Assembly (NCBI RefSeq): GCF_003018235.1
Contig: NZ_CP027437.1
From: Escherichia coli
GTDB lineage: Bacteria; Pseudomonadota; Gammaproteobacteria; Enterobacterales; Enterobacteriaceae
Direction: 5' to 3' (one strand)
Length of the DNA stretch: 64,000 bases
In this document: positions 28,501-31,500 of the stretch, one piece after another
Layout: the number at the start of each line of letters is the position of its first letter
How positions within the stretch are numbered: position 1 is the first letter of the stretch
Position numbers: made by a program

Positions 28501-31500
28501 GACCCGGCATATAGCCTATCTCTGGCGTTTGTTTGTCTGCGGCGTCTGGGAATGCGCAAATGGAATAACCATTCAGTGGGTTATCGCCGTGGCGAAGCGC
28601 CAGAAAAGCCGCCGGGCCGTGGCAAAGGGAGATAACAAAACGGTCATTTTTGATTGCCCACTGTAAAGCGGCAGCCACGTCCTGGCTTTCAGGTAAACCA
28701 ATAAGTGCGCCATGACCACCAGGAACAAAGATTGCTGCATATTCGCTGTCTGCGTTGAGGCTGGCGACAACATCCGCGAGTTTCTTCGGATTGCGGAACA
28801 ACGATTTATGCTGCTCAAAGAATGGCATTACTTTTTCATCTTTGTGTGGCATAGCCCAGTATTCAAACTTGGTCATCAGACCTGAAATGGTCGCCACTTC
28901 GAATTCGAAACCTGCAGCATGGAGATGATACAACGGCAGCAACGTTTCAATCGGATGGTTACCGGTCGAGAACAGTTTGCCGTTATCGGTCGGCAAATAA
29001 CGTTCGTCCGCGGCGATCACCAGAATTTTATGTTTACCGCGATAAGGTTTTGGATAGTCCACGCCATCAAGATCAGAGACAGGACTGGTATATTGGCTAA
29101 GCGAATATTCTGAAGGGAAGAATGCATTATCTTCAGCAATATCGACCTGCGGATTTTTACTTGTTTGAACAGTCATAGTGTATTCCTTATTGTTGCTTAG
29201 TTAGGGTAGTCACTATATTTGCGACTGAGCTGGTCGCTATTTTTAACCAGGCTGGAAAATTGAGTCAATATATCGAAAGCGGTAGTCGGCGGGTGTAAGT
29301 ATGTAATGATGATGCTGCACTGGTGTTGAATATTATTCACGCCAAATTTTCCTTATTGAGCAACGCCGTCGCAAGTGACCTCAATGATTTTAGACCATTA
29401 TCAGAGGTACAGGGCGGCAGGGAGAGATTTAGTGATGTGGAATATTATGGTGCTGATGAATATTTATATCCCGGATTGGCAGAGAAAAAGCTTTTTTCAT
29501 GCACTATTTTTGCAAATATTTCTATATGGGAGGCGGTTTTGTTGCAGATTAATTCATAAAGAAATGCATTTGGGTGTTGGCTTGAAGAGTAGCTGGTTGA
29601 TGTTATTGTGCCAGGAGGGGCAGGGTAAGGGGCTGTATCGATATGCTTTGGCAATTGCGCGTGCCGCAGATGGAGATGAAATGCCAATAAAAAAGCCTGA
29701 GTTCGATGAGGGACGAACTCAGGCTATTGTTAAGTTTTACAGTAACACGCCGCGACGCGTTGGCTGATTAGAACTGGTAGACTAAGCCCACAGCTACGAT
29801 ATCATCGGTAGCGATGCCGTTTTCTTTGTAGAAGTCGTCGTCGTTGTCCAGCAGGTTGATTTTGTAATCAACGTAGGTGGACATGTTTTTGTTGAAGTAG
29901 TAGGTCATACCAATATCAACATATTTAACCAGATCTTTGTTGGTGTAATGATGATTGCCCTGGCTGTCGAAGTTATCACTATTTACACCGCCTAAATCCT
30001 TACCTTTAGATTGCAGGTAAGCGATGGACGGGCGCAGACCGAAGTCGAACTGATACTGAGCAACAACTTCAAAGTTTTGGGTTTTGTTAGCGATCGCATC
30101 AGCATCACCGTAACCAGTCATGTTACGGGTTTCAGCATACATAGCTGCTAAGTAAACATTATTAGCGTCGTACTTAGCACCAACGGTCCATGCTTCTGCT
30201 GTTTCACCGCCAGCAGTTGCATCGAAGCGGTCTCAGTCACGAGTATTATGCCAACCTTTGTGAACCTGATTGTCAGTACGGTCAGAATTAGAATATGCAG
30301 CACCCAGACTTAAACCGAAGTCGAAGTCGTAGGAAGTAGACATACCGAAACCATCACCATTTTCTTGAGCAATGTCACGACCCTTACCCTTACCAGAACC
30401 TTCCTGACCGAATGGACCACCGTTTTCGTTATTACTCTGATATTGCAGAGCAAAGTTCAGGCCATCAACCTGACCAAAGAAGCCATTGTTACGGTAGGTT
30501 GCAACACCATTAGCACGACCATTCATGAAGTTGTCAGCGCCAGCATAGGTATCGCCACCAAATTCTGGCAGCATATCGGTCCATGCTTCTACGTCATATA
30601 CGACACCGTAGTTACGACCATAGTCGAAAGTACCATTCTGACCAAAGCCTAAACCTGCAAATGCCAGACGCGTTGCAGTATTACCTTTGTCGCTTTCAGT
30701 ACCGTTTGCGCCAATGTTAAATTCCCACTGACCGTAACCAGTGAATTGATCAGCGATCTGAGTTTCACCTTTGAAACCGATACGGGCATATGACTTGTCG
30801 CCATCGCTGCCAGCATCATCAGAGAAGTAGTGCAGGCCCGCTACTTTTCCGTACAAATCCAGTTTATTACCATCTTTATTATAGACTTCAGCCGCATTTG
30901 CTGCGCCAGCAACTAATAACGCCGGGACCAGCATTGCCAGAACTTTTCTTTTCATTATGTATTCCCTTGTGATTATAATCTTCATGAATATATTAATAAG
31001 TGCCGTTATCCAAAAAAAAGCACATTTGGATACTATTCTATGAAGTTCATTTTATTTTAAAGATTACATTTAACAAATGTATTTAAAAGATTTCAAAATG
31101 TTTCTAATCTATTTAATATAATTCAGAATTATGAATTCTAAATATAAATATTCATGAAAATTATAAATGTATATCAATATGTTATGAGTTGAGTGGAAAC
31201 ATGGGGGGTATCAATGAGTGTTGCGCCAAACGGCTGGTGTGATCACGCGTACATTAATGAAGGCATAAAAAAAGCCGGCATCATGCCGGCCCAAAAAATA
31301 TAAACAAGACGATAAAAGGCTAATAACGGAGGCATCATGACACAGAAAAATAAAAAGGTATAATTATAATCAGTGCTAATATATTGATTGAATGAATTAA
31401 TAAAGCCGATATCAAAGATAAATAAAATCGCTCAAAACGATTTTTCCTGTATTCACTGCCGTTGCGCAAAAATTATCTATTTGTTCAAAAAATGATTGAG

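Follow-up and report, generated by a model that had tools for sequence, protein, structure and literature searches.

Probable recent inactivation of the OmpC-family porin gene yedS of Escherichia coli by a single opal codon

How should a porin gene be read that is open from signal peptide to C-terminus except for one in-frame TGA? The question is raised by yedS in a 64,000-nucleotide stretch of Escherichia coli DNA (RefSeq assembly GCF_003018235.1, contig NZ_CP027437.1), which is referred to here as the window and to which all positions refer. Such a codon could mark ordinary gene decay, a loss favored by selection, a leaky or recoded gene, or an error in the sequence. Our analysis makes it very likely that yedS, a quiescent porin gene of the OmpC family, was recently made a pseudogene by a single G→T transversion that converted Gly-241 (GGA) into an opal stop.

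The genes of the region are ordered hprR-hprS, hchA, yedS, rseX, drpB, yedJ, dcm, and vsr. hchA (28325..29176, minus strand) is a neighbor of yedS, and the small RNA gene rseX (31267..31356, minus strand; a full-length match to Rfam RF01401 at 96.7 bits, with a gathering score of 50) lies directly upstream of yedS on the same strand, the position that it also has in K-12. K-12 and 13 other genomes have exactly this gene order around yedS, which places the gene at the yedS locus. The identification as yedS in the original prediction is confirmed, since the gene sits between drpB/rseX and hchA exactly like K-12 yedS (b4496) and encodes a Porin_1 protein of the OmpC subfamily. In several of the sampled genomes drpB is annotated as frameshifted, as containing an internal stop, or as split (L007 711..991; L015 715..996; L009 723..1017), which may reflect assembly errors or real decay. 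A second Hfq-dependent small RNA gene of the window, DsrA (39692..39778, plus strand), scores 102.5 bits and, like rseX, is well above its Rfam gathering threshold.

The gene belongs to the porin family. The restored YedS protein scores 541.7 bits against the NCBIfam OmpC subfamily model NF007841 (curated cut-off 484), and its scores against the OmpF and PhoE equivalog models fall under the cut-offs of those models. Residues 27-395 span the entire Pfam profile PF00267 Porin_1 (positions 1-337 of 337; E = 5.6e-142). The best relative of solved structure is Klebsiella OmpK37 (PDB 6v78; E = 1.5e-146 over the full length), followed by Omp36/OmpK36/OmpC. The PEFGG motif of the constriction loop L3 falls within residues 127-137, where G133, G134, and D135 are invariant in an alignment of YedS and OmpC sequences; with both this motif and a signal peptide, the protein has the marks of a general diffusion porin. 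Proteins of the YedS type are named variously in the sources, as porin OmpC, YedS, OmpN, or outer membrane protein S1.

The reading frame contains a single interruption. Translation of 30985..29768 on the minus strand gives 406 codons in one frame with one internal stop, a TGA at 30235..30233 (tca on the plus strand). The gene had been predicted as two open reading frames that share a frame, with 30 open codons between them, and this description holds: the frames at 30233..30985 (250 aa) and 29768..30142 (124 aa) are in phase on the minus strand, and the 90 nt (30 codons) that separate them are open. The predicted span of 29768-30985 is correct at its end and not at its start. The true start codon is the ATG at 30955..30953, which opens a canonical signal peptide followed by AEVYNK; the ATG at 30985 is merely the edge of a mechanically called frame, the first ATG past the upstream stop. 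The start is placed at 30955 because of this signal peptide (codons 1-21, 30893..30955, minus strand, as read from the sequence; solved mature porins align from query residue 21-22), because a Shine-Dalgarno sequence, AAGGGA (30963..30968, minus strand), invariant in six strains, stands 7 nt upstream of the ATG, and because the RefSeq start for intact yedS alleles corresponds to this ATG.

So delimited, yedS occupies 30955..29768 on the minus strand and has a coding length of 1188 nt, with 395 codons, one of them nonsense, and a natural stop. The premature opal stop at codon 241 (30233..30235) divides it into a translatable N-terminal fragment of 240 aa (30236..30955), which comprises the signal peptide and predicted strands 1-9 with the L3 PEFGG motif, and an untranslated C-terminal remnant of 154 codons and the natural stop (29768..30232). 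The remnant is open and undamaged, and holds predicted strands 10-16 and the terminal ...VYQF.

Comparison with intact alleles indicates that the TGA is the only disabling change. When 5,426 complete E. coli genomes were searched with megablast, virtually every one proved to contain the locus, and 2,019 gave full-length matches. In the two full-length relatives that match best, E. coli Z1323HEC0462 and A34, the gene runs without interruption for 1188 nt and is annotated as encoding a complete porin. The window gene is collinear with both, of equal length and aligned position by position without a gap. Five bases separate it from the Z1323HEC0462 allele: two of them make up the change V24I, two are synonymous, and the fifth turns GGA into TGA at codon 241. 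From the A34 allele it differs at 21 bases, all of which, apart from the TGA, are synonymous or clustered in codons 235-240. No frameshift or deletion is present in these alignments, so the earlier claim of a sole lesion stands, and GGA→TGA is the only disabling difference from both alleles. None of the five differences from the Z1323HEC0462 allele lies downstream of the stop, which indicates that the lesion is young. The gene is thus a pseudogene by nonsense mutation in the usual sense, with a premature stop relative to intact orthologues that removes an indispensable part and that is not an error.

The position of the stop was placed with an alignment of 13 YedS/OmpC sequences and a structural model. 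In the alignment, the segment that includes codon 241 carries G, S, or Y in the long alleles and is absent from the short alleles and from OmpC. The AF2 model, built on this shallow 13-sequence alignment and of low confidence (mean pLDDT 56.7), was used for strand order only; it has 16 strands in the expected order and a non-strand stretch at residues 226-251, between strands 9 and 10. By standard porin topology the stop would therefore fall in the extracellular loop L5, a placement that rests mainly on the variability of the alignment because the model is of low confidence.

Porins of the PhoE/OmpF type require a C-terminal aromatic residue and a closed barrel for assembly, and the signal is recognized by the BAM machine. 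In the window, translation ends after predicted strand 9, so that no single polypeptide contains the complete 16-strand barrel and the C-terminal aromatic residue. The stop removes 154 residues, with predicted strands 10-16 (7 of 16) and the C-terminal ...VYQF, and we infer from this loss that the 240-residue fragment cannot form a porin pore. The window yedS thus belongs to the porin family by descent, and its product is not a porin.

The flanks of the gene are retained. Between rseX and the yedS start lie 311 nt (30956..31266, minus strand), an AT-rich, putative 5′ regulatory region with a GC content of 0.205-0.335; the value for 31000..31199 is 0.205. The original prediction of an AT-rich promoter region is correct as to composition, and the promoter itself is suggested by conservation. 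Mean column identity in the DNA upstream of yedS is 98% among six strains, and the YedS proteins of these strains are 59-99% identical. A consensus scan of the region gave 6 promoter-like hexamer pairs against 6.0 in shuffled sequence. Because the upstream region is conserved, it is reasonable to suppose that the yedS promoter has been retained; private substitutions of the window occur there as well, for example at 30994, 31070, and 31248. Downstream, an intrinsic terminator (29684..29725, minus strand) has a 12-bp stem with 7 GC pairs, an 8-nt loop, and a T-run (TTTTT), with stem and T-run at 29725..29694, and agrees with the strong terminator that had been predicted. In the yedS-hchA spacer, Z1323HEC0462 carries an IS200C transposase gene (L001 5480..5938), an insertion that the window lacks.

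The noncoding DNA at 30956..31500 is 98% conserved against the corresponding DNA of five other genomes (L001, L002, L003, L012, and L014), in which the length of YedS varies by up to 45 residues. On this sequence pattern the yedS locus combines a fixed control region with surface loops that are hypervariable. A CRP-type site, ggTGTGAtcaggcGCACAtta, has been reported upstream of K-12 yedS (preprint PMC12871828); the window has ggTGTGAtcacgcGTACAtta at 31236..31256, and none of the five other strains compared has the change found in the second half-site of the window.

The best reading of this background is that yedS is probably a spare porin gene, silent under normal circumstances and lost at little cost, as suggested by the AT-rich upstream DNA and by the silencing of both rseX and the Salmonella porin OmpS1. 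In K-12, rseX is undetectable unless H-NS is removed (PMC8313858), and H-NS/StpA repress the quiescent porin OmpS1, a repression that LeuO lifts (PMC4264507). E. coli yedS may be under the same H-NS/LeuO control, since its upstream DNA is AT-rich and the adjacent rseX is silenced by H-NS. Warner et al. in 2013 (AAC 57:1935) reportedly found yedS to be regulated by MarA/MicF and described it as 'normally nontranslated in K-12'. One carbapenem-resistant clinical isolate of E. coli is reported to have expressed an intact, functional yedS with an effect on carbapenem resistance (Warner et al. 2013, cited in PMC4048246 and PMC11267920).

If yedS is transcribed at all, translation would stop after residue 240, inside the surface loop that joins predicted strands 9 and 10. 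Once exported, the 240-aa fragment, without 7 of the 16 strands and without ...VYQF, would form no pore and would presumably be degraded in the periplasm. The phenotypic cost of the loss is probably nil under ordinary conditions. On this mechanism the TGA allele would represent an 'off' state that one base change could undo, not a regulated device.

Loss of yedS is not confined to this allele. Among 14 complete genomes sampled across the similarity range and scored for the status of the gene, yedS is intact in nine, with lengths of 1059-1194 nt, and broken in five, which represent four independent events. K-12 and a K-12-like strain have a stop and a frameshift; in K-12 the lesions are CAG→TAG (amber) at codon 162 and a 1-nt deletion near codon 221. 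O157:H7 FRIK2455 has a frameshift, O111:H- an IS1203 insertion, and WCHEC035148 an IS2 insertion. A public protein collection also contains further truncated products of the allele family of the window, with frameshifts close to codons 218 and 257. Inactivation of yedS has thus recurred independently, and the window is one more instance of ordinary gene decay. The locus is thus variably intact across strains (9 intact, 5 broken, n = 14), and the window adds another independent route to its knockout.

Recurrent breakage could also mean that inactivation was itself favored, for example as an escape from phages, colicins, antibodies, or antibiotics for which YedS is the receptor or the route of entry. 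We regard such selection as unlikely, and it is the alternative that survives best. It would account for the variety of the lesions (four independent events in 5 of the 14 genomes, together with the frameshifted products) and for the persistence of the TGA allele in about 17 assemblies. Hypervariable surface loops next to upstream DNA that is 98% conserved are the pattern expected of a surface-exposed target, and YedS has reportedly been tied to carbapenem susceptibility (Warner et al. 2013, cited in PMC4048246). However, repeated loss is just as much to be expected of a silenced gene on which selection is relaxed, and 9 of the 14 sampled genomes keep yedS intact.

A gene disabled by one base might be restored by one base, as the original prediction proposed, and for reversion the proposal is reasonable. 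A sense codon results from eight of the nine possible point mutations of TGA (R, R, G, S, L, C, W, and C), and the site lies in a variable loop; mutational repair is therefore easy in principle. Another possibility is that the stop is already bypassed in the cell, so that yedS is a leaky pseudo-pseudogene in which a near-cognate tRNA (Trp/Cys) reads UGA and derepression of the locus yields a functional full-length porin. Of the three stops UGA leaks most, and near-cognate Trp and Cys tRNAs can decode it (PMC5373646), many Salmonella pseudogenes give low levels of full-length protein (PMC9122581), and at codon 241, in a variable loop, the protein would probably tolerate Trp, Cys, or Arg. The context of the stop, GAC UGA GAC, also matches the -1 C and +5 A that are enriched around Salmonella read-through stops (PMC9122581); by analogy, it may leave room for trace amounts of full-length YedS.

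Several considerations nevertheless make a functional leaky gene decidedly improbable. The DNA downstream of the stop has no striking structure (z = -1.2), and yedS is probably silenced anyway. The non-K-12 strain of the window presumably carries the efficient RF2-B type of release factor, prfB lying outside the window. In strains with this RF2-B, a better terminator than the K-12 type, extension products are undetectable (PMC5373646). The Salmonella read-through pseudogenes mostly contain UAG (68.6%), and their expression is low (PMC9122581). Readthrough is possible in principle and unlikely to matter.

It is similarly improbable, if conceivable, that the TGA is a lineage-fixed, one-step-reversible 'off' state, from which codon-241 revertants are selected when OmpC/OmpF are lost, or, conversely, that the stop itself has been selected. 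In the first case the revertants would regain nutrient uptake, with altered carbapenem susceptibility as a by-product; in the second the stop would have removed a phage, colicin, or antibody target.

A sequencing or assembly artefact that conceals an intact yedS is hardly credible. A single-base difference is the sort of change that an error could cause, but two independent runs assembled to this very base, and gene calling on 17 contigs gave the identical truncated product. Over 4,079 nt the Logan assembly of SRR18885539 has 0 mismatches to the window and that of SRR6362503 has 1, and both have the TGA; sequencing error is ruled out by this agreement between independent assemblies. The exact 240-aa product is found on about 17 contigs of the public protein collection, one of which is a 5.01-Mb NCBI sequence. 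The short-read Logan contigs that carry the TGA allele all end at one point, window position 29877, within the conserved 3′ part of yedS, probably because assembly broke off where yedS resembles paralogous porin genes.

The allele has a narrow distribution. An 81-nt probe centered on codon 241 matched 724 of the 5,426 complete E. coli genomes, and 0 of the 724 have TGA; the best match is 98.8%, which corresponds to the lone TGA/GGA mismatch, and none reaches 100%. The mutation is private to a small lineage outside the RefSeq complete genomes searched, for which the TGA is a clean marker SNP.

Programmed recoding, in which the in-frame TGA would be a selenocysteine codon or a conserved site of regulated readthrough, is a negligible prospect: the stop is indeed UGA and in frame, and that is the only point in its favor, whereas the nearest allele reads GGA, 0 of 724 genomes have TGA at codon 241, the site lies in a dispensable, hypervariable loop, and the 81 nt downstream, where a SECIS-type hairpin would be expected, are no more stably folded than shuffled sequence (24 of 200 shuffles were as good), so that recoding is excluded by a TGA that is unconserved and a downstream fold that is unremarkable. 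A phase-variable switch was likewise rejected, because the lesion is a base substitution in a context, CGTGAC TGA GACCGC, that contains no homopolymer or short repeat.

Other features of the window deserve mention. The 22 kb around yedS are about 98.4% identical to most genomes, with a best match of 98.8%, whereas fliC (60195..61841, plus strand; 548 aa) is 100% identical to that of many E. coli that otherwise differ, among them MS6198 and ECONIH1; this contrast suggests that the region is mosaic or recombinant. The first part of the window (1..~21540) belongs to a lambdoid prophage inserted beside zinT and forms its late (head and tail) region, with genes for the major head protein (6896..7924), the tape measure (11280..13862), the central tail fibre J (16372..19719), and a tail fibre (19742..20923). 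The same prophage arrangement is found in E. coli O158:H23 CFIAFB20140388.

The practical relevance of the inactivation is narrow: intact YedS has reportedly been linked to carbapenem entry in a strain lacking OmpC/OmpF. In view of this link between YedS and carbapenems, annotators and resistance predictors should treat the allele as non-functional, yet one base from functional.

Among the closest known systems are the intact alleles WP_096930945.1 (Z1323HEC0462) and WP_016236727.1 (A34), which RefSeq names 'porin OmpC'. They have 395 codons like the window gene and identical flanks, and the nucleotide identity of the window gene is 99.6% to the first and 98.2% to the second; they are annotated as complete, with GGA (Gly) at codon 241 where the window has TGA. 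The K-12 yedS pseudogene (b4496; formerly b1964-b1966) shares the locus and the porin family and is also non-functional. It is, however, a different allele of 1193 nt, with other loop sequences and multiple lesions, in contrast to the one lesion at codon 241 in the window. The possibility that the window carries the K-12 allele was rejected because the loop sequences and the lesions differ, and since both allele and lesions differ, the two inactivations are independent.

The clinical-isolate YedS of Warner et al. is the product of the same gene and reportedly a working porin, in contrast to the window allele, which is untranslatable past residue 240. OmpK37 (PDB 6v78) is, like YedS, a minor OmpC-like porin; it comes from another species and another locus and lacks the 12-residue loop segment that holds codon 241 of YedS. 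Salmonella OmpS1, together with OmpS2, is also OmpC-like and is silent in the laboratory, and some sources apply its name, 'outer membrane protein S1', to YedS.
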